Shown here piece after piece: positions 1,170-61,648 of a stretch of DNA of 64,000 nucleotides; within the stretch, counting starts at the first letter, position 1, and every line of letters starts with the position of its first letter. Below the pieces are notes generated by a model, which saw nothing but the letters and a program-made list of their open reading frames with translations, ran no database searches and was not told where the DNA came from. The DNA is from Phage NC-G: sequence record MK310184; one strand, given 5' to 3'. Position numbers and translations under genes: made by a program.

Positions 1170-1199
1170 ATAGTACCACATCCTTGTGGCGTTGTAAAC
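1170..1199 (-). promoter_or_regulatory. Early sigma70-type promoter (GTTTAC -35, TACTAT -10)
   Basis: Minus strand reads GTTTAC, 18 nt, TACTAT; same motif family as about 15 other sites. Confidence 0.5.
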
Positions 1200-3322
1200 T
1201 ACATTTTGAATTTATTTGATAAAGAAGAGATGTCCAAAGATGCAGCAAGGATTTCCATAGCCTCATTACTTTCTGAAACAGATTCTGAAACTAGGAATTC
1301 TTTAAACCCATTCATCAATTTAACTTCACCGGTTTCCATCAGATGGTCGCCATCGTAAACGGATTCGCTGAGTTCTGAAGGAGATGTCACTGTAGCTTCC
1401 ATAAGGTATTTGTGAGATACTCTATCATTCATAGCAAAAGCCGCTACTTTATCAACCTTCAACAATAACCCGCGCGGAAGGATAATTTCCGCTTCTTCGG
1501 CATATTCTGTAAGGTCGCCAGGAGCGATAACTTTAACTGCTTCAGCACCTCGAATAACCATACCAATTTCAGCAATCCTGTCTGCAGGGCCTTCAGGTGC
1601 AATTGGATTACCAAACTCGTCTTCTTCCCATTCTACCTCTTCGTCATCGACTTCACCTACGTCAGATGAACTACCACTGGCTAATTTAAACAACTCATCA
1701 GCGGAGGATAAAGAACCTTCATCACCAACAAAAACTGCTTGGTTGTCGAGGGCCATATAATTTTTACCAAATTCGCCAAAGATATTAGGCTTTAATGAAG
1801 CGGACACAAAGTTCTTAAAGTAAAATGTTTTGTTATCAATATTATGGCGCAGAATTTTGTATGGTAAATCCTGACCACGATACAAAATAGTACCCTTAGG
1901 AAGTTTAATACCCTTGGTAAATGCTGAGTCTAAATCCTTAATCAATTTAATAGCTGTTGTATTGTTTTCGGATTCAGGTTTACCTAAAAGGAATAAGTTC
2001 ATAGGAGCATATTCAGCCGCACAATATTCAATAATGGCATTACTTTCGTCTTTGGTCAAGCCCTTAGGTTTAATGAGCTCGCCTGAATAAGCATATGCAT
2101 CGCTAATAGAATCGTTAATCAGTTTATAAACGGCTTCCATAGCGAAAGCAATTCGGGATGCTTTCTCTGAAGGAGACCCCTGAAAACGGGCACTCAGGTT
2201 ATTAACAATTCTCTTAATAATATCCAGACTATTGGTAGTATTGATTTGAGAAAGGCCACTTAAAAGTCTATCGACTTCCGTATTAAAAAATGCCATATTA
2301 TTAGAGTAAATTTCAAACCCTTGTTTATCTCTATTAGCATAATTTAGTTTAAATTTACTATCAGTCATTAAAGCGTGCGTGAGAGCAATGGTGTATCTAA
2401 AGTTGGCAAGGTCCTCACTCTTAGATTTAAACTGAGAGGCCTGACGCATTTTAGTAATAGCACCTTTTTTAAAGTTCTGACTAATCTGCTCAATACCTTC
2501 GTTCTCAGGGCCTTCGGCCGAGTGAACAGGGACAGAAGCTTCAAACTCGTTATAAACCTGCAATTCTTTAGGTGATAAAGTTTCAGGTTCGGCAGTAGAA
2601 TACTGTGCTGCTGCAGCCATACGACGGGAAATCTTAGTACGAGAAATAACAGCCTTATCGGTACGTTTCTCTTCAACCTGTGCAATAGATGCCGCTACGG
2701 CTTCTACTTTACTTACGGCCTGGCCGGTTTTCTTAGAAACATAAACTTCACCGACTTTAGACTCAACCTTGGTATAAAGGTCTGCATCAATTTCAGGCAT
2801 ACCCTTGATATCTTCGATATTAGAACCACGACGTACTAAAAGGACGTAGGTATGTTTACCACTAAACTGGAACATATCATCGACAACTTTAAACTTACCA
2901 CCGGTACGTGCCATCGCCAAACGAGCTAATACACGCTGAACAGTAGGGCCCTTACCTTTCATTTTCTTGGTAGGGAAACGGAACAAAACCGCATCCATTT
3001 TAAGTTTGTTTACTTGTTCGTATACAGTATCGAAAATAGTATTCAGTGTACCAAGTGGGTCAGAACCAAGCCCGCCTTTGAGTTCGGCTGGAGCACCCTT
3101 GCTAGACAAACTCATTAAAATAACATGAACGTATTTGTCGCCAGGCTTAACCATTTTAATAGCGTCTCCTTGAGACGCATAAGATACCATACGAGCAACC
3201 AGGTTATCATTACCTGGCGCTTGGATAGAGAAAATCTGTGGGATACCTGAGCCTGGCTTAAGATTTGTTACTGGATAGTTTTTAGCTGAATCACTATCAA
3301 AAACTTCGTTTAAATTTTCCAT
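1199..3322 (-). CDS. alt: Alt-like ADP-ribosyltransferase, paralog 1 (707 aa)
   Basis: N-terminus MENLNEVF...LVARMVSYASQGDAIK matches the T4 Alt start; C-terminal half has YRG, FVSAS and EAEIILPRG (R-S-E arrangement). Confidence 0.85.
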   Translation of the reverse strand: MENLNEVFDSDSAKNYPVTNLKPGSGIPQIFSIQAPGNDNLVARMVSYASQGDAIKMVKPGDKYVHVILMSLSSKGAPAELKGGLGSDPLGTLNTIFDTVYEQVNKLKMDAVLFRFPTKKMKGKGPTVQRVLARLAMARTGGKFKVVDDMFQFSGKHTYVLLVRRGSNIEDIKGMPEIDADLYTKVESKVGEVYVSKKTGQAVSKVEAVAASIAQVEEKRTDKAVISRTKISRRMAAAAQYSTAEPETLSPKELQVYNEFEASVPVHSAEGPENEGIEQISQNFKKGAITKMRQASQFKSKSEDLANFRYTIALTHALMTDSKFKLNYANRDKQGFEIYSNNMAFFNTEVDRLLSGLSQINTTNSLDIIKRIVNNLSARFQGSPSEKASRIAFAMEAVYKLINDSISDAYAYSGELIKPKGLTKDESNAIIEYCAAEYAPMNLFLLGKPESENNTTAIKLIKDLDSAFTKGIKLPKGTILYRGQDLPYKILRHNIDNKTFYFKNFVSASLKPNIFGEFGKNYMALDNQAVFVGDEGSLSSADELFKLASGSSSDVGEVDDEEVEWEEDEFGNPIAPEGPADRIAEIGMVIRGAEAVKVIAPGDLTEYAEEAEIILPRGLLLKVDKVAAFAMNDRVSHKYLMEATVTSPSELSESVYDGDHLMETGEVKLMNGFKEFLVSESVSESNEAMEILAASLDISSLSNKFKM

Positions 3323-3325
3323 TAT

Positions 3326-5410
3326 TTACCCTTGGATGAATTTTTCTGGGATGTCATAGAGGTCTATGCATGAAGCCAAAAGAGGCAGTACGTCAAACCG
3401 TGTAGATTTAACAAATGAATCAAAAGATACAGGGCTTTCGGAAGTATCGAAGTCATCTTGGTATACAACCAATTCACCAGTTTCCATTAGTACGTCGCCA
3501 TCATACACTACAGATTCTTGAAGCTCATCTGTCGTCATAACTTCGGCTTGAACGAGTTTTGTATTATTAGATGTTGTTCCGTCATTATTAGAGGCGTCAG
3601 TTATTTTATTAACTTTGACCATCAATCCGCGTGGTAGAATAACTTCAGCTTCGGTTGCTATTCCGAGACTTCCTGGATATACAACATTAACTTTATGGGC
3701 TCCATCAATTGCCCATCCTATTTGAACTTTAACGTAATCAGGGTTTTCTTTATACGCTCTTATTTCATTAGGATTAATGGTTATTCCTTCTTCATTTTTA
3801 TCGACTGTCAATTCATTGCGAACTTCCGGTTCTAAAAGACCTACACCCGCGTGTGTAACACCAAAACGTCCAAAAATGATAGGAGTCAGTGAAGTAGATA
3901 CAAAATTTCTGAAATAGAACACTTTATTTTTAACTAGCGCTTCGTATATAGGAGCAGTCATACTTTGAGCACGATAAACTGTAATGCCTTCTGGTATACG
4001 GTCACCATTTTCAAAAGCGGAATCAAGATTATTAACAGCAGATTCAATAGACCTTTCACTCATCACATCATAGTTCTGAGGATTGTAACGCCCTAAAAGA
4101 AGATTATTGATGTCGGTATATCCTGAGCCACAATATTCTCTAATGCCACGCTTTTGTGATGGGGTGTATTTAGAACCATCGCGAGCAATAGTAATATCGA
4201 CCATAATACCACCACCTACGCCAGCAAAACTATACACGCGTTTTTTAATGAACTTGGTCTTGGCTGCTTTCCACTTGGACTCGGTTAATTCATTCCAGAC
4301 GTCGTCAGGTTGACCTTTACGAGTTTTGTTATGTATAGCCAACCATTCACCTTTGTATTCTTCGAAAACCGTATTAATAACAGAGGCATATTTTTCTAGA
4401 GCTTTAACAGATGTCAAAGGTTCGTTTTTGATGGCTGTAAGAATTTTCTCTTTAATTTTCTCTTGAATTTCACCTATGCCGTGAAGTGGAAACATTTTAT
4501 ATTCGTAATGCAACTCTTCAGCAGTGCCTTCAGCTACTATATTAGCAACTTTATTTTTAGCCGCAGGAGAATTGTTATTGGTGACCATTTCCTGGGCCTC
4601 AGGGATTAACGGAGCTGTTGCAGGTTTATTAAAATCTGCTGCAGTAGCTTCATATTTCTTAAACAGTTCACTTTCATTACGATAAGATTCTAAAGATTGA
4701 CTGGCTGCAATAGCTCGACGAGAAATCTTAGTCTTGGTTACAACCATTTTATCAGTGCGACGTTCTTCGACTTTAGCAATACTGCCGGCAATAGCAGTTT
4801 CTTTAGTAACCTGCATGCCTTCTTTTTTAGAAATATAAACTTCGCCAACATCAGAATCTACCTTAGTATACAAATCAGCATTAATTCCTGGCATACCTTT
4901 GATATCTTCAATATCAGCTTGTTTACGAACTACTAGGATATAAGTATGTTTACCAGTAAATTGGTACATAGCCGGAACTACTTTGAAGCGGCCGCCTGTT
5001 TTTTGAGTTACCAAACGTTGGATGATTCTCTGGACGATAGGTCCTTGCCCTTTCATTTTCTTGGTTGGAAAACGGAACATGATAGCATCCATACGAAGCT
5101 TTTTAACTTGTTCGAATACTACGTCGAAAATGGTATTAATAGCATCAATAGGAGTAGGGCCTAAGCCGCCTTTAAGTTCGGCTGGAGAACCTTTAGCTGA
5201 AAGGCTCATAAGGATAACGTGGGCGTATTTATCACCTAATTTAACCTGTTTAATAGCATCGCCTTCAGAGGCATAAGATACCATACGAGCAACTAATTGG
5301 GATTCGGCGTCGCCAATCTTCCAAATCTGCGGTACTTTAAGTTTTGGGTTTAAGTTTACAGTAGGCAGGGTGCCTTCGGACTCAAACACCTCATTCAATT
5401 GTTCGGTCAT
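3326..5410 (-). CDS. alt: Alt-like ADP-ribosyltransferase, paralog 2 (694 aa)
   Basis: N-terminal half closely parallels paralog 1; C-terminal half divergent but keeps YRA, FVSTS and EAEVILPRG. Stop is 3 nt from the paralog 1 start. Confidence 0.85.
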   Translation of the reverse strand: MTEQLNEVFESEGTLPTVNLNPKLKVPQIWKIGDAESQLVARMVSYASEGDAIKQVKLGDKYAHVILMSLSAKGSPAELKGGLGPTPIDAINTIFDVVFEQVKKLRMDAIMFRFPTKKMKGQGPIVQRIIQRLVTQKTGGRFKVVPAMYQFTGKHTYILVVRKQADIEDIKGMPGINADLYTKVDSDVGEVYISKKEGMQVTKETAIAGSIAKVEERRTDKMVVTKTKISRRAIAASQSLESYRNESELFKKYEATAADFNKPATAPLIPEAQEMVTNNNSPAAKNKVANIVAEGTAEELHYEYKMFPLHGIGEIQEKIKEKILTAIKNEPLTSVKALEKYASVINTVFEEYKGEWLAIHNKTRKGQPDDVWNELTESKWKAAKTKFIKKRVYSFAGVGGGIMVDITIARDGSKYTPSQKRGIREYCGSGYTDINNLLLGRYNPQNYDVMSERSIESAVNNLDSAFENGDRIPEGITVYRAQSMTAPIYEALVKNKVFYFRNFVSTSLTPIIFGRFGVTHAGVGLLEPEVRNELTVDKNEEGITINPNEIRAYKENPDYVKVQIGWAIDGAHKVNVVYPGSLGIATEAEVILPRGLMVKVNKITDASNNDGTTSNNTKLVQAEVMTTDELQESVVYDGDVLMETGELVVYQDDFDTSESPVSFDSFVKSTRFDVLPLLASCIDLYDIPEKFIQG

Positions 5411-5448
5411 AATAATTCCTCTTTAATAACCGTATTTATGCCATAAAA

Positions 5449-5460
5449 GGCCCGAAGGCC
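5449..5460 (-). terminator. C(UUCG)G hairpin after the small ligase-distal ORF
   Basis: Minus strand ggcc-uucg-ggcc followed by TTTTAT. Confidence 0.45.
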
Positions 5461-5631
5461 TTAAAGTGGTAGCAACGTACGATATACTTCGAATGTCGGG
5501 CCTTTTTCATAGCCATCAAACATGTCTTTAAAATCGGCAAAAGCTATTTCATCCTCAAACTCTAGGATGATTTGAGAGGCCGCAGTGGTATTTGTGTTTG
5601 TTACAACAATTGTTTCTAAATAAGCTTTCAT
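5461..5631 (-). CDS. Small hypothetical protein (about 56 aa; the track ORF is longer)
   Basis: Internal Met start lies 1 nt after the ligase stop; the longer track ORF would overlap ligase by 41 nt. Confidence 0.4.
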   Translation of the reverse strand: MKAYLETIVVTNTNTTAASQIILEFEDEIAFADFKDMFDGYEKGPTFEVYRTLLPL

Positions 5632-5632
5632 A

Positions 5633-7156
5633 TTATAGTCCAGTTTGAGACCAATCACCAAATACATCTTCAAATGTATCAGCTTCAGTTTTATCGAAAC
5701 GCCAACCTTTAATAATTGGAAGGAAAATACCTACAGTATCAGTACGTCCTTTAGAATGAACCCAACCATTACATTCACAGTCAGCAATACGTCCAATCAA
5801 CTTACCTTCACGAGCTTGTTTCATAAGAAGTTCACGGTCTAAATCAGGGCGGTCTTCTAATGGAATCAATACCTTTTTACCTGATTTATCTTTCTTATGG
5901 GTAGTATCTTTAAAGCCTGAACCACAGTCGGATGTAATTCGACGACACCGCGATACTAGCTCGACACCACCAAGTTTGTTAGGGTCCTTAGAGTGTTCAT
6001 AGTAACCTACTACTTCTAAAGCGATATCGATTACTTCTTTGAACTTGATAAGATTCTTAGAACGGCGGTTTTCCCAGTAGGAGTCCATGTTCTTAAGGAT
6101 AATACCTTCCAGACCTTGGTCGACATATTTCTTATAAACGACTTTAGCTTCGTCAAGATTATTAACCCATTGGTTTTCGATAGCTTCAACACGCGTTGTA
6201 CCATGCAATACGACATTATGGGCAACCATAAGTTCTAAGGCTGCAAAGCGTACATCATACTTATCGCCTTTAATTTTACCTTCGGAATATACGACATCCA
6301 ATGGGACATAATCCCACGCCTGCAATACCATACCTGCTGCTTCGGTTGGAGTAATAGTTCCTTGAAGAGCCTTGTTAGCCAACCCGTTTGAAGTAGAACG
6401 ATCGGCTACGGTTTGGAATTCCTTGGCTTTACTTAATTCAGGAAGTTCCTCATCAAACATACTAAACAAATCATTAGACGCTTTAGGTTCTACTTTAGGA
6501 GTGTGGTAAACTAATTCACCATCAATCATAACACCATTAGGATGGCGCTGTCGGGCTTCTTCGGTCATGGCCATTAATTCAGCCGCCAAAAGAGTAAGCC
6601 CTTGATATTCATTACCACCACGAGTAAGGAATGTTACGCCATCGTTACGAACTTCAGCAAAACAACGAGCACCGTCAGCTTTTAATTGGGCGAACGCAGG
6701 CCATTTGATATTTTTCTTAATCAAATCTTCATCATAAGAACTAGCTAACATTTGAGGTTGTTCAGGGATTAAACCTTTCCAAACCTTGTTAGCAATAGAA
6801 ATCGATGCACCACATTCAAGGTCACGCATCATTACGCGACGTAATACCTCAGCGTCAGGACCCTTGGCATCAGCAATAATTTGGGCAAGCTCTTCAATAG
6901 CGGCATTACCCGTAATCTTACGGGTGGCTAATGTGAACTCAGCGAAATCAAGAAGGTCTTCAAGTGTAACCATACCAAAGGATTGAGACGTAAATCCAGG
7001 TTCTGGCCACTTTTTAATACCATAGTTCAAACGACGGGTATAAGCCATACGATATACACGTTTCAGAAGCTCGTTATCCTTTTCACGAGCAATAATAGCT
7101 TCTTTAGCTTTAGTAGAACCAATAGAAGCAATTTCGTTTAAAATATCTAAAATCAT
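5633..7156 (-). CDS. 30: ATP-dependent DNA ligase (T4 gp30-like)
   Basis: MILDILNEIASIGSTKAKEAI...KRVYR matches the T4 ligase N-terminus; 507 aa. Confidence 0.93.
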   Translation of the reverse strand: MILDILNEIASIGSTKAKEAIIAREKDNELLKRVYRMAYTRRLNYGIKKWPEPGFTSQSFGMVTLEDLLDFAEFTLATRKITGNAAIEELAQIIADAKGPDAEVLRRVMMRDLECGASISIANKVWKGLIPEQPQMLASSYDEDLIKKNIKWPAFAQLKADGARCFAEVRNDGVTFLTRGGNEYQGLTLLAAELMAMTEEARQRHPNGVMIDGELVYHTPKVEPKASNDLFSMFDEELPELSKAKEFQTVADRSTSNGLANKALQGTITPTEAAGMVLQAWDYVPLDVVYSEGKIKGDKYDVRFAALELMVAHNVVLHGTTRVEAIENQWVNNLDEAKVVYKKYVDQGLEGIILKNMDSYWENRRSKNLIKFKEVIDIALEVVGYYEHSKDPNKLGGVELVSRCRRITSDCGSGFKDTTHKKDKSGKKVLIPLEDRPDLDRELLMKQAREGKLIGRIADCECNGWVHSKGRTDTVGIFLPIIKGWRFDKTEADTFEDVFGDWSQTGL

Positions 7157-7449
7157 TTTACCGTCCTTACAGTTTGTGTACTTCTATTATAAGCTACTTC
7201 ATCTAAAAGCTCATTTAAAGTTTTGTGATACGATATAATACGCTTATCTTTAATATCATATTCAGTAACATACATAAATCCACGCCGAACACATTGGATA
7301 AAGATATCTTCATCTTTGGCTTGGAAATATACAGGATTCAATCGAAGGAATTGTCTAAAGTTTCCATAATCATGGGATTTAGGGATTCCATCAGTAATAG
7401 TATGAACAACAAACATATTAACCTCGTGCAATCCATTCAACGGCTGCAT
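7153..7449 (-). CDS. Hypothetical protein (30.1 position)
   Basis: ORF whose stop overlaps the ligase start; true start may be the internal Met (MFVVH). Confidence 0.5.
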   Translation of the reverse strand: MQPLNGLHEVNMFVVHTITDGIPKSHDYGNFRQFLRLNPVYFQAKDEDIFIQCVRRGFMYVTEYDIKDKRIISYHKTLNELLDEVAYNRSTQTVRTVK

Positions 7450-8056
7450 TATTACGAAGGGATTCGATTGCTGCGATATCGTCCCATGAATTAACCTTTA
7501 CGGCTAAATTAGGTTTAAAGTCGCGTTCACCACGGGCTAACCAATAAACTTGGATATCCATGAGAATATTAGATGCTGCATCACAGTGATGAGCCAAATC
7601 ATCAACATAAAACTTAATGCGTTTGCCGTATGTATTTTTAGCTCTTATGAACAGGTCTTCTTTTGATTCTGAATGACCACACATCAGAATCTCCTTGAAT
7701 GCGCCAGGGAACAAAGCATTCAAATTGAATTGTCTATTCAGCAGGGCATCAATTGAGTCGCCTAGCGCAGTCACGGCTACAAAATCGAAGTCTTTTTTGA
7801 GCTTGTTGATGTGTTTTAATGCGTCCATGTAAGGGGACAGATAACGAATAAAATCCGACTGATTATATTTCTCAATTAAACGTGCGCCTAATTCGTCGTC
7901 ACAATTAAACAGTTCACCTGGAGATAAGAAACGTTCGTCCTGAATCATATTCAAAATATGTTCTAAAGGCAAATTATATTTCTGTGCGAAATAAGGCAAG
8001 CCGGACTGCCAACTTAAACATACTCCATCGATATCTGTTAAGATAACTGGTTTCAT
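7418..8056 (-). CDS. HAD-superfamily hydrolase-like protein
   Basis: N-terminal ILTDIDGV (HAD motif I, DxDGx) and a later YVDD motif. Confidence 0.5.
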   Translation of the reverse strand: MKPVILTDIDGVCLSWQSGLPYFAQKYNLPLEHILNMIQDERFLSPGELFNCDDELGARLIEKYNQSDFIRYLSPYMDALKHINKLKKDFDFVAVTALGDSIDALLNRQFNLNALFPGAFKEILMCGHSESKEDLFIRAKNTYGKRIKFYVDDLAHHCDAASNILMDIQVYWLARGERDFKPNLAVKVNSWDDIAAIESLRNNAAVEWIARG

Positions 8057-8520
8057 AATAAATCTCTCAATTTGTTTAGGATGTCGATAAACTCTTTTTC
8101 AGTTAGTATTGTATCACATTCTTTGAGGTGGCTTGCCATTGAATGCTTTAAAACCTTACCTTTAGTGGCTTGTAAAGCTTCTCGGAATCCTTTGTTCTGG
8201 AGCGCTGCTTCAAAATACGCGCTTTCGTAAAGCTCTTTCCACGCTTCGGAATATCTTGAAAACGGGGTTCCAAGCCAGAACAACGTGCCACGGTCCTGAG
8301 CTCTAGCATAAGCTCGTCCAGCTTTTTGCGCGTCCAACCCAGACATCCTAAATATACGTCTTTGTTGTTCAACATTTTTCACCTTACATCCTTGGAGGAA
8401 TCCTTCGAGTCCACCAAATTGGATACCATCCATAACGAAAGGCCATTTAGCAAAGTTACTTAATGCACATGATGGCCACGGAAAGTTACTTCTAATTTCT
8501 AACTCAGACATCTTTGACAC
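8053..8520 (-). CDS. NADAR (YbiA/DUF1768)-like protein
   Basis: LSNFAKWPFVMDGIQF...EGFLQGCK resembles the conserved SNF...DG...E..FQ..K core of E. coli YbiA-type proteins, as I recall it. Confidence 0.5.
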   Translation of the reverse strand: MSKMSELEIRSNFPWPSCALSNFAKWPFVMDGIQFGGLEGFLQGCKVKNVEQQRRIFRMSGLDAQKAGRAYARAQDRGTLFWLGTPFSRYSEAWKELYESAYFEAALQNKGFREALQATKGKVLKHSMASHLKECDTILTEKEFIDILNKLRDLL

Positions 8521-8719
8521 TTATAATTTCAACATCAGCCCAATAACCATAACCCGGCAGTCGGTCTTCAATGGATAAACCACCGTCATGTTTAGGCATT
8601 TTAATTGTCATGATATAAGGTTCTAAATGGTCCGCCGTATGAGGAGAAACATCAGTCACACGATAAGTCACTTCAACCATTTCCGTACCTAACAATTTCT
8701 GAATCAGTTTCTTAACCAT
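8504..8719 (-). CDS. Hypothetical protein (71 aa)
   Basis: Compactly packed minus-strand ORF. Confidence 0.45.
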   Translation of the reverse strand: MVKKLIQKLLGTEMVEVTYRVTDVSPHTADHLEPYIMTIKMPKHDGGLSIEDRLPGYGYWADVEIISVKDV

Positions 8720-8720
8720 A

Positions 8721-8915
8721 TTATCCTCGCTTCAAACATTTGATTACAGACAATTCAGAACCCATGCGAACGTCTTCGGTGCCATCGACCCATAGGACCG
8801 TGTAGGCTTCTTTAATAGTAGCATTACCCAATTTAAAAGCAGGTAAAACCTTTGAAATCATACCAGGAATACCTACACCTTTTAACTGAACGGTTTGTGA
8901 TAAGAATAGTTGCAT
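8721..8915 (-). CDS. Hypothetical protein (64 aa)
   Basis: Compactly packed minus-strand ORF. Confidence 0.4.
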   Translation of the reverse strand: MQLFLSQTVQLKGVGIPGMISKVLPAFKLGNATIKEAYTVLWVDGTEDVRMGSELSVIKCLKRG

Positions 8916-9202
8916 TAGAACCTCATCTGGAATCCATGTGATTTAACATTACCGCCGTAGATGTCAGAAGTATTGACTTCGCGGGCGACACTTGGGTCGA
9001 TGTTAATATCGCGGTTGAGCTTAGTGATTGCTAGGGTGTCACGACCATTGACTGTACGGAATTCTACTGGACAAACCACATCAGCATAGGCCTTAATGGA
9101 TTCACGAGTAGGCTGTTTGTCAGCAGGAACATCTTTACCTGCCTTAGAGAAAACAACTTCACAGAAATTTTTACGAGTATCGAAATAAGTGGTCATAAAC
9201 AT
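8915..9202 (-). CDS. Hypothetical protein (about 95 aa; start at MFMTTYF)
   Basis: The track's N-terminal extension is the translation of an upstream hairpin; GAGGA Shine-Dalgarno precedes the internal ATG. Confidence 0.5.
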   Translation of the reverse strand: MFMTTYFDTRKNFCEVVFSKAGKDVPADKQPTRESIKAYADVVCPVEFRTVNGRDTLAITKLNRDINIDPSVAREVNTSDIYGGNVKSHGFQMRF

Positions 9203-9218
9203 AATATTTTCCTCAAAG

Positions 9219-9234
9219 GAGGCCGAAGCCTCCA
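9219..9234 (-). terminator. C(UUCG)G hairpin
   Basis: Minus strand ggaggc-uucg-gcctcc between two early genes. Confidence 0.45.
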
Positions 9235-9244
9235 TTTTTTAAGA

Positions 9245-9610
9245 TTAGATATCAAATTCATTCAGAACTACATCAAAGATTGCTTCCAGGTGTTCAGGTT
9301 TAGCACGGTTGCTCAGGATATGACGAATCCAGGTTTTAACCAGAAGCTTACGATTATCACCGTTCCAGCAAGGATGGGTACCTAAATCACGTTGACGGAA
9401 ATCATCGTCTAAAGCGATTTTAAAAGTAGAACCTTCCATAGTGATTGAAACCGTGATACCATTTTCAAAGCGCATATAAACGTAGTTAGGAGTCATGCAC
9501 TGTTCGATTTCGCACACTGTGCCGTTGTTGTGTTTCCACAGGCAAATAACTTCAGAAGAACCAGCGATACCGTTAGAAACATATTTACGTTCGAAGTTGA
9601 TGTAGTTCAT
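9245..9610 (-). CDS. Hypothetical protein (121 aa)
   Basis: ORF with a conserved 5' leader and promoter cassette upstream. Confidence 0.55.
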   Translation of the reverse strand: MNYINFERKYVSNGIAGSSEVICLWKHNNGTVCEIEQCMTPNYVYMRFENGITVSITMEGSTFKIALDDDFRQRDLGTHPCWNGDNRKLLVKTWIRHILSNRAKPEHLEAIFDVVLNEFDI

Positions 9611-9681
9611 TTTATTCTCCAGTTTGTTTTCGTATTATTTGGTACAGGTCTATAATAACACAACCTGTACCAAAGTAAAAC
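9608..9681 (-). promoter_or_regulatory. Early promoter and leader cassette (PeSL-like), copy 1
   Basis: About 40 bp near-identical to 10014-10052, covering start codon, Shine-Dalgarno and leader; inverted repeat ggtacagg...cctgtacc flanks the -10. Confidence 0.5.
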
Positions 9682-9683
9682 AT

Positions 9684-10016
9684 TTATTTCACAACATTCC
9701 AATTTTTCATATCAAGTTTACCAACTTTTTTCATCTGAGCAATCAGACGTTCAGCACGTGTACGGGCATTAACGTAATAGAATTCACCAATTTTGTTTTC
9801 TTCGATACGACCAGTAATTACAGTTTTCAGTTCATAAATCCAACCTGTAAAGAAGTTGTGAAGCTCGATGGTAAATGTGAAATCAGTACCCATACCTTCA
9901 GTTGTTTCAACTTCGATGATATCACCTTCAACTGCAGTCAGGACCCACATGGTTTCTTGATATTCACCGTTGAAACATTTAGCTTTAACAGATGCATTCA
10001 GGTTTACAGTTTTCAT
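9684..10016 (-). CDS. Hypothetical protein (110 aa)
   Basis: ORF with the same leader cassette as the neighbouring gene. Confidence 0.55.
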   Translation of the reverse strand: MKTVNLNASVKAKCFNGEYQETMWVLTAVEGDIIEVETTEGMGTDFTFTIELHNFFTGWIYELKTVITGRIEENKIGEFYYVNARTRAERLIAQMKKVGKLDMKNWNVVK

Positions 10017-10076
10017 TTTATTCTCCAGTTTGTTTTCGTATTATTTGGTACATGTCTATAGTATCATGCCTACCGG
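10014..10076 (-). promoter_or_regulatory. Early promoter and leader cassette (PeSL-like), copy 2
   Basis: Minus strand GTATAC, 17 nt, TACTAT-AGAC; the leader matches copy 1 with one mismatch. Confidence 0.5.
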
Positions 10077-10114
10077 AGATGTATACCCTTTTTTAAAGAT
10101 TTAGAAACAAAAAT

Positions 10115-10132
10115 GGGACTCCGAAGAGTCCC
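10115..10132 (-). terminator. Rho-independent terminator, C(UUCG)G hairpin
   Basis: Minus strand gggactc-uucg-gagtccc followed by ATTTTTGTTT. Confidence 0.7.
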
Positions 10133-10137
10133 ATAAC

Positions 10138-10299
10138 TTATGCAATAACTTTACCGAAGCAAGCAGCATCTGCACGCAATACTGCACGAGCACGAGCTTG
10201 AAGCTTATCAACTACCTGATTGATACGCTTGTTAGACGCACGCTTGTAACCAGCGCGTTTAGAGGTTCCGTCAACTACTTTAACTTCTTTCTTAGCCAT
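10138..10299 (-). CDS. Small basic protein (53 aa), absent from the ORF track
   Basis: Hand translation gives MAKKEVKVVDGTSKRAGYKRASNKRINQVVDKLQARARAVLRADAACFGKVIA; strong terminator directly downstream. Confidence 0.5.
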   Translation of the reverse strand: MAKKEVKVVDGTSKRAGYKRASNKRINQVVDKLQARARAVLRADAACFGKVIA

Positions 10300-10652
10300 T
10301 TTTAAATCTCTTAAATTAGGATGCAGGACTTATTGGCGTTGCCTGCGCAAGCCCTCAAGGGGAACATAGGTTTCGGATATTTAACGACAGGATAACCATA
10401 AACCTCGTCATCATAGCTCTTATCTGTTGCACACCGTTAGCTTAAAGGTTCCGGGTTCGATTTCTCGAGGATAAGATATATACTGATGGATATATAGGCC
10501 TTGAGGCGTACTCCCGATTGGCCATCACCTCGGGGTAGCATGCACTTGCCGCTATAAAATAACATTCAAGAGGTACACCGTAAAACTGTCGGGGTCTTAA
10601 AACTATAATGATTCGCAAATCATTAATCAGACAGTTCGACGGCTCCTCGATT
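10300..10652. other. ORF-free island of about 350 bp between rIII and the small basic protein gene
   Basis: No ORF above about 35 codons on either strand; long-range complement between 10351-10360 and 10499-10508; GGTTCGATT T-loop-like motif that does not fold into a tRNA. Confidence 0.5.
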
Positions 10653-10901
10653 TTACTTCAGGGTAATAATAAAATGACGTACTGCTTTACGAGCTGCTGA
10701 AGCCAAAGGCTTAGCATATTTCAGTTCATCTTTTGCTTCCAGTTCAGCAGCCAGAGTAGCCTGAGCAGGATTCAGATGTTTGAAATAACGCAGGATTTCC
10801 AGTGCTTCGGCTTCAACATCAATAGATGCGCCATAGTTTTCGTGACCGTTGTTCCAAGCGTTGCGTTGCAGTTCAAGAGCGTGATTCAGATGTTTGTTCA
10901 T
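10653..10901 (-). CDS. rIII: rIII lysis-inhibition accessory protein
   Basis: Internal start MNKHLNHALELQRNAWNNGHENYGASIDVEAEALEIL... (82 aa) fits my recollection of T4 rIII; position between 31 and the 30.x genes. Confidence 0.75.
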   Translation of the reverse strand: MNKHLNHALELQRNAWNNGHENYGASIDVEAEALEILRYFKHLNPAQATLAAELEAKDELKYAKPLASAARKAVRHFIITLK

Positions 10902-11047
10902 TTTAAATTCTCGATTCGAGATAAAGATTGGTGGACACGTTCTTCTGAATTTCACTTCCTTTCGGCAAGTCTCTCAGTTGTAGTCCACCGCTTAGAATTG
11001 TTCGGTTAACTTATTATTCCGACACCCAATTCATATTATTATTTATA

Positions 11048-11371
11048 TCACTTATAAAGGCACGGAATAGCTTTATAGTGGCAGGTAACGAATTTCTGTT
11101 TAATTTCTTTAGGCTGTTTAATACCCAATGCAACTAAAGGATGAGGCACGTTAGCAATCTTACCAACAGGAAGTGGAGTCAAATCACCTACTTCACAAAA
11201 ACCTTCAGGGACATCAGGCCCTACAGAATAAATTTCACAAAGTTCAGGGATTTCACCTTGATGAAGTTTGCCAATAACGATACCAGATGCAGTAGTTTCT
11301 TCATCACCAGCTTGTTTTGGTTCGGAAACGAGAATAACATATTCTCCGACCGCTTTAATAGGAAGTTCCAT
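11048..11371 (-). CDS. 31: Co-chaperonin for GroEL (T4 gp31-like)
   Basis: [16 protein letters not shown]...PELC...[16 protein letters not shown]...[15 protein letters not shown] matches T4 gp31. Confidence 0.92.
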
Positions 11372-11429
11372 ATTTAATCCATGTTGTTTTGTTGATAGAT
11401 TAATAATAACACACTATTTTTAAAGCATA

Positions 11430-11726
11430 TTACAGGACAAGCAGAGTTTCAGTCTGAAGGCCGTCAACTGTAATCAGCTTATCGAAACGGAATGAACGCC
11501 ATTGTTGAAGGTCGACATCAAAAACATATAGAGAATTACGTGGGCCTGGTTTACCTGTTTCGGATTTGAAGTCTTCCTTTTTAGGAAGAAGGTCCAGGTC
11601 ACGGGTGCATTTAAGACGACGGATATCACCATTAATCTTTTCAAATACCACTTCGTGGGTGCCTACAGACAGGATGGTTTTTACTTTTTCACAAATACGA
11701 ATGGTTTCTTGTTCAGTTAAAATCAT
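11430..11726 (-). CDS. Hypothetical protein (98 aa)
   Basis: ORF in the 31-to-cd interval. Confidence 0.5.
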   Translation of the reverse strand: MILTEQETIRICEKVKTILSVGTHEVVFEKINGDIRRLKCTRDLDLLPKKEDFKSETGKPGPRNSLYVFDVDLQQWRSFRFDKLITVDGLQTETLLVL

Positions 11727-11728
11727 AA

Positions 11729-11962
11729 TTATTCCAGAATAGTTTTAATAGTGGTTGCATTACGCTCTTTTAGAGCTCTTAATAGGCTATGGCAATTATC
11801 AAGAATAGGCACGGTTTTGTATTTCATTTCGGCGCGAACCCACTCGGATTTATAGTACGATTTCCAACGAGAGAAAAAGTACTTTTTGTATTCTACCGAA
11901 TAGGCTACTAAGCTTTCGCCTTTTGAGTTCAGAGCTGAAAACTTCACTAATCGAAATTTCAT
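11729..11962 (-). CDS. Hypothetical protein (77 aa)
   Basis: ORF; stop overlaps the cd start. Confidence 0.45.
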   Translation of the reverse strand: MKFRLVKFSALNSKGESLVAYSVEYKKYFFSRWKSYYKSEWVRAEMKYKTVPILDNCHSLLRALKERNATTIKTILE

Positions 11963-12507
11963 TATTCACCACAATAGTTTTGAATTGATTCCCAGTTCAG
12001 AGAACGGAGACCAGTACGGTTATACTGGATAACTTCGATGCCTGATTCACGGAGGATATCATCCCATCCTTCAGGATTTCGGTCATAAAGTTCAGCATAA
12101 ACCAGCGTTTTAATTCCGGACTGCGCAATAGACTTAGCACAATCGGCACACGGAGATAGTGTCACATACATCGTAGCACCGTCAATAGAACTTCCTGTAC
12201 GAGCTGCGAACAGGATAGCATTCAGTTCGGCATGGATTTCATTTTTGGATGACCATGCAGCATGAGCCATACGGTGTTCTTTAAGAAGAATCGATTTATG
12301 GGACATTCGTGCCGGGTCATACACAACACGAGTCCAGTCCTGTTCCACTGCATGGTCACAACAGTTAACACCGCCAGACGGTGAACCATTATATCCTGTA
12401 GAGATAATGCGACCATTCTTTTCGATAACCGCACCCACTTTCCATGAACAACATTTTGATTCTTGAGAAATCAGATATGCAATCTGAAGGTATGTGCTTG
12501 CTTTCAT
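11962..12507 (-). CDS. cd: dCMP deaminase
   Basis: Cytidine/deoxycytidylate deaminase zinc motifs HAELNAI and PCADCA; T4 cd position. Confidence 0.9.
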   Translation of the reverse strand: MKASTYLQIAYLISQESKCCSWKVGAVIEKNGRIISTGYNGSPSGGVNCCDHAVEQDWTRVVYDPARMSHKSILLKEHRMAHAAWSSKNEIHAELNAILFAARTGSSIDGATMYVTLSPCADCAKSIAQSGIKTLVYAELYDRNPEGWDDILRESGIEVIQYNRTGLRSLNWESIQNYCGE

Positions 12508-60409: not shown

Positions 60410-61024
60410 TCAGTAAGAAAGAACGGAAAGATTCCAAATGGTGTAATTATTCCATTTAGGATTTCTCTCAATAGAGTCTACGCGCAGCGTAGTTCCCGCA
60501 GGGAACATCATCTCATCTTCATCATTGATTAATTGTAAGTTTGCTACACGGGTAGATTCAGGAAATGCGCCTGGGAACTCTTCAGGGGGCGCAGCACATA
60601 ACATTTTAAAGATTTCTTCCTGATAATTGTACACAAATGGCGCATCATTAATACAAAAGATATTAAATGTGCCGTAGAAGTTATAAGATGCGAAATTCCT
60701 TGCCACGTTGAAGTCTTTAGAGAAGCTCATCACACGGTCGAATTCAATTACTGCACCTACACACATTGTGGACTCTAGATACTTCATAGTCTTTTTAGAT
60801 ATGCCGCGATAGAGCTTATCAGGCACTACAGAAGTCATATTCTTACGAATGATTTTGTTCAAAGTTTCTTGGATAGAATCCGGTTTATTTTCCATACACT
60901 GCCAGAGCGTGCTCTGTTCTAAATCAGAATACACCTCATCAATTTCTATCTGAGTATTCTCACGGAAATCATCGCATTTGGCATTGTTGATAAATTCTGC
61001 TAATTTATGGCTTGGGTATAACAT
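60410..61024 (-). CDS. ModA/ModB-family ADP-ribosyltransferase (204 aa)
   Basis: LYRGIS...MSFSKDF...MMFPAGT pattern (Arg, S-x-S, acidic) at T4 modA/modB position. Confidence 0.7.
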   Translation of the reverse strand: MLYPSHKLAEFINNAKCDDFRENTQIEIDEVYSDLEQSTLWQCMENKPDSIQETLNKIIRKNMTSVVPDKLYRGISKKTMKYLESTMCVGAVIEFDRVMSFSKDFNVARNFASYNFYGTFNIFCINDAPFVYNYQEEIFKMLCAAPPEEFPGAFPESTRVANLQLINDEDEMMFPAGTTLRVDSIERNPKWNNYTIWNLSVLSY

Positions 61025-61078: not shown

Positions 61079-61648
61079 CTAAAAATCCAACATTTTTAAA
61101 TGAATTGTTTTATACTCGATTTCGTACGGGTCCCTTTTGACGGTTTCGATTGCAACAATCTCAAATCGCGATAGACTAGAGACCATGAACTCACATTCGG
61201 TTTCAACCATATCATAGAGGTCAATACGGGTTTCATCTATTTCAAGCTCATCCACATTCCCTGCAAGAACAAGGTCGATAGCATGGTTGTAGTAGTCAAA
61301 AATGAAGGGTGCATTCCTGAGACTTAAAATGGTTTTTGTTCCATATTCCCAAGCCCCTGCGAACTGTCGAGCCTGGGAGTATTGAGTACTAAAAGAAGTA
61401 ACTCGACCAGGAGACCATTGACACCCTACTGAAAGGAGCTCTAATTGCTCAAGTTCTCTGGTGGTAATCCCACGATACAACTCTACCGGAACCGCTGAAG
61501 TAACATGCTTGCGAACCAGTTTGTCGAGGTCGTAATGGAAGTTAGGGTCTTTTTTGGCGTCCAGGCATTTTTCTAAAAGATTCTGTTCATGTTTTGAAAA
61601 TTTGGAATTGATTCGGTCTTGATAAAGACATTTTTGTTCGATGTTCAT
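61079..61648 (-). CDS. ModA/ModB-family ADP-ribosyltransferase (189 aa)
   Basis: LYRGIT...TSFSTQY...E motifs; paralog of the neighbouring gene. Confidence 0.7.
   Translation of the reverse strand: MNIEQKCLYQDRINSKFSKHEQNLLEKCLDAKKDPNFHYDLDKLVRKHVTSAVPVELYRGITTRELEQLELLSVGCQWSPGRVTSFSTQYSQARQFAGAWEYGTKTILSLRNAPFIFDYYNHAIDLVLAGNVDELEIDETRIDLYDMVETECEFMVSSLSRFEIVAIETVKRDPYEIEYKTIHLKMLDF

Follow-up and report, generated by a model that had tools for sequence, protein, structure and literature searches.

The closest described systems to genes 30.3 and 30.2 of Phage NC-G (sequence record MK310184), of which a 64,000-nucleotide stretch (the window) was analyzed in the present study, are found in phage T4. 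In the work of Johannesman et al. (bioRxiv 2024; Nat Commun 2025), T4 gp30.3 was given the name AdfN, for "anti-DarT factor NADAR" (PMC11257639, PMC11825919). They reported that the deletion of adfN rendered T4 and T2 approximately 10^4-fold sensitive to DarTG1, that ectopic AdfN alone restored the plaquing of RB69 on DarTG1, and that AdfN is both required and enough for T-even phages to resist DarTG1 (PMC11257639, PMC11825919). Purified AdfN took ADP-ribose off DarT1-modified DNA (PMC11257639, PMC11825919). The E36A and K43A forms of T4 AdfN were reported to be inactive, and E36A abolished counter-defence (PMC11257639). In an independent study, T4 NADAR gp30.3 hydrolyzed ADP-ribosylated guanine (guanine-ADPr), not thymine-ADPr, in vitro (PMC11125620). 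The natural RB69 allele is described as inactive because a frameshift costs it the last 15 residues (PMC11257639).

As judged from its sequence and modeled structure, gp30.3 of the window is the orthologue of T4 AdfN and a minimal single-domain NADAR. Escherichia phage JS98 (Dhakavirus, Straboviridae) is 98.9% identical across positions 7000-9700 of the window, hundreds of T4-like phages match as well, and the locus belongs to a block of early genes in a T4-type phage that resembles JS98. The initial annotation of the window had placed a 155-amino-acid NADAR-like protein at 8053-8520 (GTG start) and a 212-amino-acid HAD-like protein at 7418-8056 (ATG start), both on the minus strand. Both open reading frames (ORFs) are present, and they are named 30.3 and 30.2, respectively, in JS98 and T4. 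The frame and coordinates of the former were correct; however, its length needs revision. The open frame of 30.3 reaches the GTG at 8520, but T4 gp30.3 and the JS98 protein begin at an ATG corresponding to 8511, for which reason the ATG is the likely start. The protein would then comprise 152 amino acids (MSELEIR...), and adfN (gene 30.3) would occupy 8053..8511 on the minus strand, the 459-nucleotide form annotated in JS98.

The gp30.3 proteins of T4 and the window are 85% identical over 152 of 152 residues in a gapless alignment. Pfam Phage_30_3 (PF08010) matched the window protein with 219 bits (cut-off, 36; E = 2e-65), covering profile positions 2-138 of 138. Pfam NADAR (PF08719) also matched 8 of 37 gp30.3 homologues. 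The sole significant sequence match of the gp30.3 family profile in the PDB was YbiA, with EGFLQ..K aligned to EHYFQAQK. The AlphaFold2 (AF2) model of gp30.3, which consists of short strand pairs and core helices, had a predicted local distance difference test score (pLDDT) of 92.9; the NADAR (YbiA) fold has two small beta-hairpins on the flanks of a helical core. The top three Foldseek matches of this model were YbiA (2b3w), PnNADAR of Phytophthora (8bau), and the NADAR of Geobacter lovleyi (8bat). All of the remaining matches had probabilities of 0.06 or less, which leaves the three solved NADARs as the only meaningful ones. Profile and structure searches placed both proteins of the locus in the folds that the initial annotation had anticipated, NADAR and HAD, far beyond chance.

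The conserved core of gp30.3 reads SNF (residues 18-20), DG (28-29), and E36-G-F-L-Q40-G-C-K43. The core had initially been described as SNF...DG...E..FQ..K; SNF, DG, the glutamate, and Q..K are present, whereas the last part reads E..LQ..K, FQ being the YbiA form. We examined conservation in an alignment of 38 sequences (A2) reaching down to 35% identity. E36, the catalytic glutamate (codon GAA, 8404..8406), K43, the catalytic phosphate-binding lysine (codon AAG, 8383..8385), and H123, the mark of the phage gp30.3 family (codon CAT, 8143..8145; all on the minus strand), were each invariant. In the model, H123 stands just after the last strand (residues 120-122). It has been reported as the equivalent of PnNADAR E125 (PMC11543638), and it takes the position that Glu/Asp occupies in other NADAR families, thereby defining the phage family (PMC11125620, PMC11543638, PMC12945103). 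The C-terminal helix (approximately residues 138-152; 8053..8100, minus strand; residues 138-151 in the model) is intact, with the alignment to T4 running to full length.

Enzymology and phenotype were demonstrated for the T4 protein, and we infer the function of the window copy because of the 85% gapless identity, the presence of E36, K43, and H123, the unbroken C-terminal end, and the NADAR fold of the model. We propose that, during infection, gp30.3 hydrolyzes the N-glycosidic bond through which the host toxin DarT1 attaches ADP-ribose to guanine of phage DNA. Phage replication could then go on in DarTG1-carrying E. coli, with gp30.3 acting as an "orphan antitoxin" in counter-defence. The best combined explanation of the locus is that gp30.3 is an AdfN NADAR enzyme and gp30.2 an NT5C-like HAD phosphatase, to which we assign a probability of roughly 0.85. 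The proposal in the initial annotation of a counter-defence against DarT-type guanine ADP-ribosylation agrees with experiments reported for the T4 orthologue (PMC11257639, PMC11825919, PMC11125620). Since the central element is orthologous to an experimentally characterized counter-defence gene, the anti-DarT1 role of this gene family is already known, having been published in 2024-2025. A real counter-defence gene was thus recovered by reading the sequence alone. What the present study adds is that the JS98/Dhakavirus allele of adfN is intact and has retained all residues of known importance, which suggests that these phages should resist DarTG1.

Some published results weigh against such a simple view of the enzyme. 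The T4 enzyme was reported not to rescue uninfected cells from DarT1 and to rescue phages outside Tevenvirinae only partly (PMC11125620, PMC11825919); therefore, something beyond the enzyme appears to be needed. T4 without DNA modifications was still resistant, and T-even phages "likely encode another factor" (PMC11825919).

Two observations concern adfN itself. Many gp30.3 database entries are shortened or split (89-126 amino acids), such as those of phages UGJNEcP4, SV76, and NR1 (our entries P0124-P0126, P0132-P0134, and P0141; locus L010, 4636-5001). Together with the RB69 frameshift, these entries suggest either the repeated natural inactivation of adfN or sequencing or annotation errors at a homopolymer run. 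Furthermore, an ORF of 75 codons in the +1 frame within adfN, 30.3' (8148-8375, minus strand), is open in the window and is annotated in T4 ("internal translation in a different reading frame"). Between T4 and the window, its product is 57% identical at the amino-acid level, compared with 84% in the main frame across those bases, and the 30.3' frame is not kept open in diverged homologues. We therefore do not treat 30.3' as a supported gene; it seems to be a side effect of the main frame.

Gene 30.2 (7418..8056, minus strand; 212 amino acids, ATG start) encodes a predicted HAD-superfamily phosphatase that is NT5C-like. From its sequence and model, gp30.2 is a HAD-superfamily protein with a C1 helical cap and, to judge by its motifs, is catalytically intact. 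The DIDGV sequence that had initially been recognized as HAD motif I is present at residues 8-12. We examined conservation among 40 homologues reaching down to 38% identity. In motif I (D8-I-D10-G-V; 8021..8035, minus strand), D8 (the nucleophile) and D10 (the general acid/base) are invariant in these homologues and also in 53 distant relatives. Motif IV, D152-D153 (Mg2+ ligands; 7598..7603, minus strand), and motif III, K132 (7661-7663, minus strand), are invariant in the 40 homologues, and T96 of motif II, in VTAL on the same strand, is at least 90% conserved. The AF2 model (pLDDT 94.9) contains the Rossmannoid HAD core fold with helices inserted after motif I at residues 16-86. The helices of this C1 cap (16-26, 32-40, 46-50, 54-65, and 77-86) lie between a strand at 4-7 and a strand at 91-97. 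The top 50 Foldseek matches all belonged to the HAD superfamily, the best being C1-capped members of subfamily I. We placed gp30.2 in the HAD superfamily because the features of this superfamily were tested for and found, in agreement with the initial annotation.

The nearest characterized family of gp30.2 appears to be that of the 5'(3')-deoxyribonucleotidases (NT5C). Pfam NT5C (PF06941) matched gp30.2 with 12.9 bits (E = 0.1), under the curated threshold of 24.8, and we do not claim membership because this threshold was missed. Weak NT5C matches were found in just 3 of the 40 close homologues, and the match to mouse deoxyribonucleotidase 2jao (E = 0.15-0.19) is suggestive only. A word-indexed homologue search with the A1 profile returned the same close phage family and nothing further. 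An exhaustive representative profile search from gp30.2 yielded 1,212 clusters at E <=0.001, and hhalign showed unambiguous homology for the 53 distant relatives (probability 100%, E = 7e-50). Among these relatives, Pfam matches were to NT5C in 27 (best E = 4e-10, some above threshold), Hydrolase in 14, and HAD_2 in 12. Fusion proteins with a gp30.2-like domain (P0314, P0359, P0307, and P0261) had no informative Pfam partner domains. Literature searches on gp30.2, or on 30.1/30.2/30.3 with T4, found nothing on the function of T4 gp30.2.

We predict that gp30.2 acts as a Mg2+-dependent phosphatase, in which phosphoryl transfer would pass through an aspartyl-phosphate intermediate, its predicted C1 cap architecture being typical for small-molecule substrates. 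It might remove phosphate from a (deoxy)nucleoside monophosphate or from some comparable small phospho-metabolite in phage nucleotide metabolism, a tentative proposal by analogy to which we give somewhat less than even odds. We favor nucleotidase activity because the nearest characterized relatives are NT5C proteins. Gene 30.2 is nearly always annotated as "hypothetical"; on the basis of its motifs and model, it may now be described as encoding a catalytically intact NT5C-like HAD phosphatase.

The gp30.2 family shows further variation. It occurs in short (approximately 200-220 amino acids) and long (approximately 270-340 amino acids) forms. The long forms, that of T4 included, have a low-complexity tail whose end is a conserved GIGTGIEYLNRQPTA-like motif (T4 locus L002, 5475-5740). 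The C-terminus of the window protein lies at 7418-7480 (minus strand), this being a JS98-type protein without the low-complexity tail. In one environmental myophage contig (L077), a gp30.2-like HAD gene (4989-5615) is located directly upstream of an ORF (5759-6622) that resembles GMP reductase/IMP dehydrogenase by eye, a weak hint of a nucleotide-metabolism context.

The gene for DNA ligase (gene 30; 5633..7156, minus strand, by the JS98 and T4 annotation) is located downstream of 30.2 in the same direction of transcription. In a survey of 64 T4-like loci from IMG/VR with flanks of up to 5 kb, a DNA ligase gene was directly downstream of 30.2 in all 64. One alternative for gp30.2 is a 3'-phosphatase of DNA ends, or some other enzyme that heals nucleic-acid ends in partnership with the adjacent ligase. 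A HAD C1 cap encloses small substrates, and the Pnkp-type 3'-phosphatase is capless. In contrast to the latter, gp30.2 carries a C1 helical cap at residues 16-86. Moreover, pseT is already present in these phages, and the marine relatives of 30.2 do not adjoin a ligase: around the distant relatives (approximately 29% identity, on environmental and marine myophage contigs) there are unrelated auxiliary genes, and both the ligase and the NADAR gene are missing from the vicinity. We consider an end-healing role unlikely, and prefer a small-molecule phosphatase.

A different substrate has been considered for gp30.3. On comparative grounds, Iyer et al. (2022) proposed soluble substrates for phage NADARs (PMC9503650), and E. 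coli YbiA is reported to act on small riboflavin intermediates (PMC11125620, PMC11543638). TIGR02464 also matched gp30.3, weakly. Accordingly, gp30.3 may mainly degrade soluble molecules derived from ADP-ribose (immune signals, for example, or RNA-repair by-products), its role on DNA being secondary. However, the genetics and biochemistry of T4 AdfN point to DNA-linked guanine-ADPr and to DarTG1 (PMC11257639, PMC11125620, PMC11825919), and the cited literature reports no soluble substrate for the gp30.3 family. We regard a mainly soluble substrate as quite improbable and retain guanine-ADPr in phage DNA as the predicted target of gp30.3.

The relationship between 30.2 and 30.3 was also assessed. 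The stop codon of adfN and the start codon of 30.2 overlap in an ATGA (8053..8056, minus strand), as read from the sequence and the ORF table, which suggests the translational coupling of 30.2 to adfN. The two genes are adjacent in T4 also. In the survey, a 30.3 homologue was present within 5 kb upstream of 30.2 in 34 of the 64 loci. We initially took NADAR to be missing from roughly half of the T4-like phages that carry 30.2, and dropped this idea since a genome-wide tblastn search showed that the gene is often elsewhere in the genome. In this search, 1,437 phage records contained 30.2 and 1,510 contained 30.3, and the two genes were spread over the genera in almost the same way; in Yersinia phage TG1, for example, the NADAR gene is far from 30.2. 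Genes 30.2 and 30.3 are near-core in Straboviridae, their adjacency is variable, and the constant neighbor of 30.2 is the ligase gene. The locus and co-occurrence data neither prove nor exclude cooperation between 30.2 and 30.3.

Since the translation of 30.2 appears to be coupled to that of adfN both in T4 and in the window, gp30.2 is an obvious and cheap candidate for the additional T-even factor that Johannesman et al. deemed likely (PMC11825919). It might be needed for full AdfN activity, clearing a product or an intermediate or processing ADP-ribosylated guanine nucleotides. The nearly identical genus distributions are consistent with this role; however, such co-occurrence is expected anyway for two near-core genes of Straboviridae, and adjacency is limited to the 34 loci, with the NADAR gene sometimes distant, as in TG1. 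AdfN was also reported to work alone in vitro (PMC11257639, PMC11125620), and the factor proposed in the paper is a stabilizing or localizing one, not an enzyme (PMC11825919). We therefore consider this role of gp30.2 very unlikely. If true, 30.3-30.2 would be a two-enzyme anti-DarT1 module in which the second enzyme clears the ADP-ribose-derived product or ADP-ribosylated guanine nucleotides. The description of gp30.2 thus offers a cheap and concrete hypothesis for its function and for what else AdfN needs in T-even infections.

The four ADP-ribosyltransferases (ARTs) counted in the initial annotation are all encoded in the window, on the minus strand. Two are Alt paralogues matched by Pfam ADPrib_exo_Tox (1199-3322, 707 amino acids; 3326-5410, 694 amino acids), and two are Mod-type genes assigned to phrog_832, "RNA polymerase ADP-ribosylase" (60410-61024 and 61079-61648), which are flanked by srd and mrh, an arrangement shared with T4. 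The Alt and Mod enzymes attach ADP-ribose to protein arginines, a target unlike the substrates of NADARs. The idea, also raised in the initial annotation, that gp30.3 serves the phage's own ADP-ribosylation program by stripping the ADP-ribose that Alt, ModA, or ModB attaches, as a means of self-protection or of controlling timing, gained no support and is extremely improbable: although two Alt and two Mod genes share the window with gp30.3 and the NADAR genes of T4-like phages are described as expressed early along with ARTs (Iyer et al., PMC9503650), the reported substrates of NADAR reversal are nucleic-acid bases, the sole documented activity of the T4 enzyme is that of a guanine-ADPr N-glycosidase (PMC11125620, PMC12945103), the cited accounts describe no protein-directed activity for it, and the reported phenotype of the adfN deletion is specific, namely, sensitivity to DarTG1 (PMC11257639).

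The two Alt genes are full-length tandem paralogues, corresponding to altb and alta of JS98; T4 has a single alt together with alt.-1 and alt.-2, remnants left by an old partial duplication. In the window, the match to the ART Pfam model is far weaker for the first copy than for the second (E = 6e-18 versus 8e-36), which suggests that one Alt paralogue has diverged.

According to the JS98 and T4 annotation, the order of genes on the minus strand is 30.9...30.4-30.3-30.2-30.1-30 (DNA ligase), an early cluster. The genes are closely packed: the stop codon of 30.4 (8504-8506) overlaps the start region of adfN, and gene 30.1 (7153-7416, minus strand; Pfam DUF3045) is located between 30.2 and the ligase gene. 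No Rfam families were found within 5000-12000 and no tRNAs within the window. A promoter scan was uninformative, with promoter-like sites being less numerous than in shuffled sequence. A strong terminator-like hairpin is present at 10134-10113 (minus strand), just downstream of 30.9, and approximately 350 bp at 10300-10650, between 30.9 and rIII, has no convincing ORF; that region yielded neither an Rfam family nor a tRNA. Both gp30.3 and gp30.2 are 100% identical to proteins encoded in GenBank PQ561418.1 ("phage Ec2-ASingh"), which is unannotated.

Comparisons with known systems indicate where the two proteins of the window stand. Unlike the NT5C family (PF06941; human and mouse cdN and mdN, S. 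epidermidis 3bwv), gp30.2 is below the Pfam threshold and has the family-specific invariant motifs WQSGLPYF, YNxSDFIRYL, and NRxFNLNALFP. Over residues 1-194, it shares 75% identity with the first 191 residues of T4 gp30.2, as well as the same position and the overlap with 30.3. However, the T4 protein (278 amino acids) has a C-terminal tail of approximately 85 amino acids that is absent from the window protein (212 amino acids) and variable across phages.

E. coli YbiA (2b3w) is the best fold match of gp30.3 (Foldseek E = 5.6e-05, template modeling score 0.67), and the core SNF...E..[FL]Q..K is common to both. In contrast to gp30.3, YbiA is reported to have a Glu in the last strand and links to the hydrolysis of riboflavin intermediates and to swarming, and to give no in vivo protection against DarT1 (PMC11125620).

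DarG1, the NADAR antitoxin encoded next to DarT1 (Geobacter lovleyi 8bat, E. coli C7), has the same fold and catalyzes the same reaction, guanine-ADPr hydrolysis, and is described as the closest NADAR clade (PMC11257639). Nevertheless, the window protein is a 152-amino-acid core without the N-terminal extension, its neighbors are 30.4 and 30.2 with no adjacent DarT gene, and it has His123 where DarG1 has its catalytic Asp. The T4 enzyme reportedly cannot stand in for DarG1 in uninfected cells (PMC11257639, PMC11125620, PMC12945103).

In all, 23 substitutions separate the window copy from T4 AdfN, most of them falling within the loop at 54-66 and the segment at 126-133. The window gene is from Dhakavirus, whereas the T4 gene, the allele with known activity, is from Tequatrovirus. 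The two proteins are alike in their length of 152 amino acids, E36, K43, and H123, their place between 30.4 and 30.2 upstream of the DNA ligase gene, and their predicted NADAR fold.

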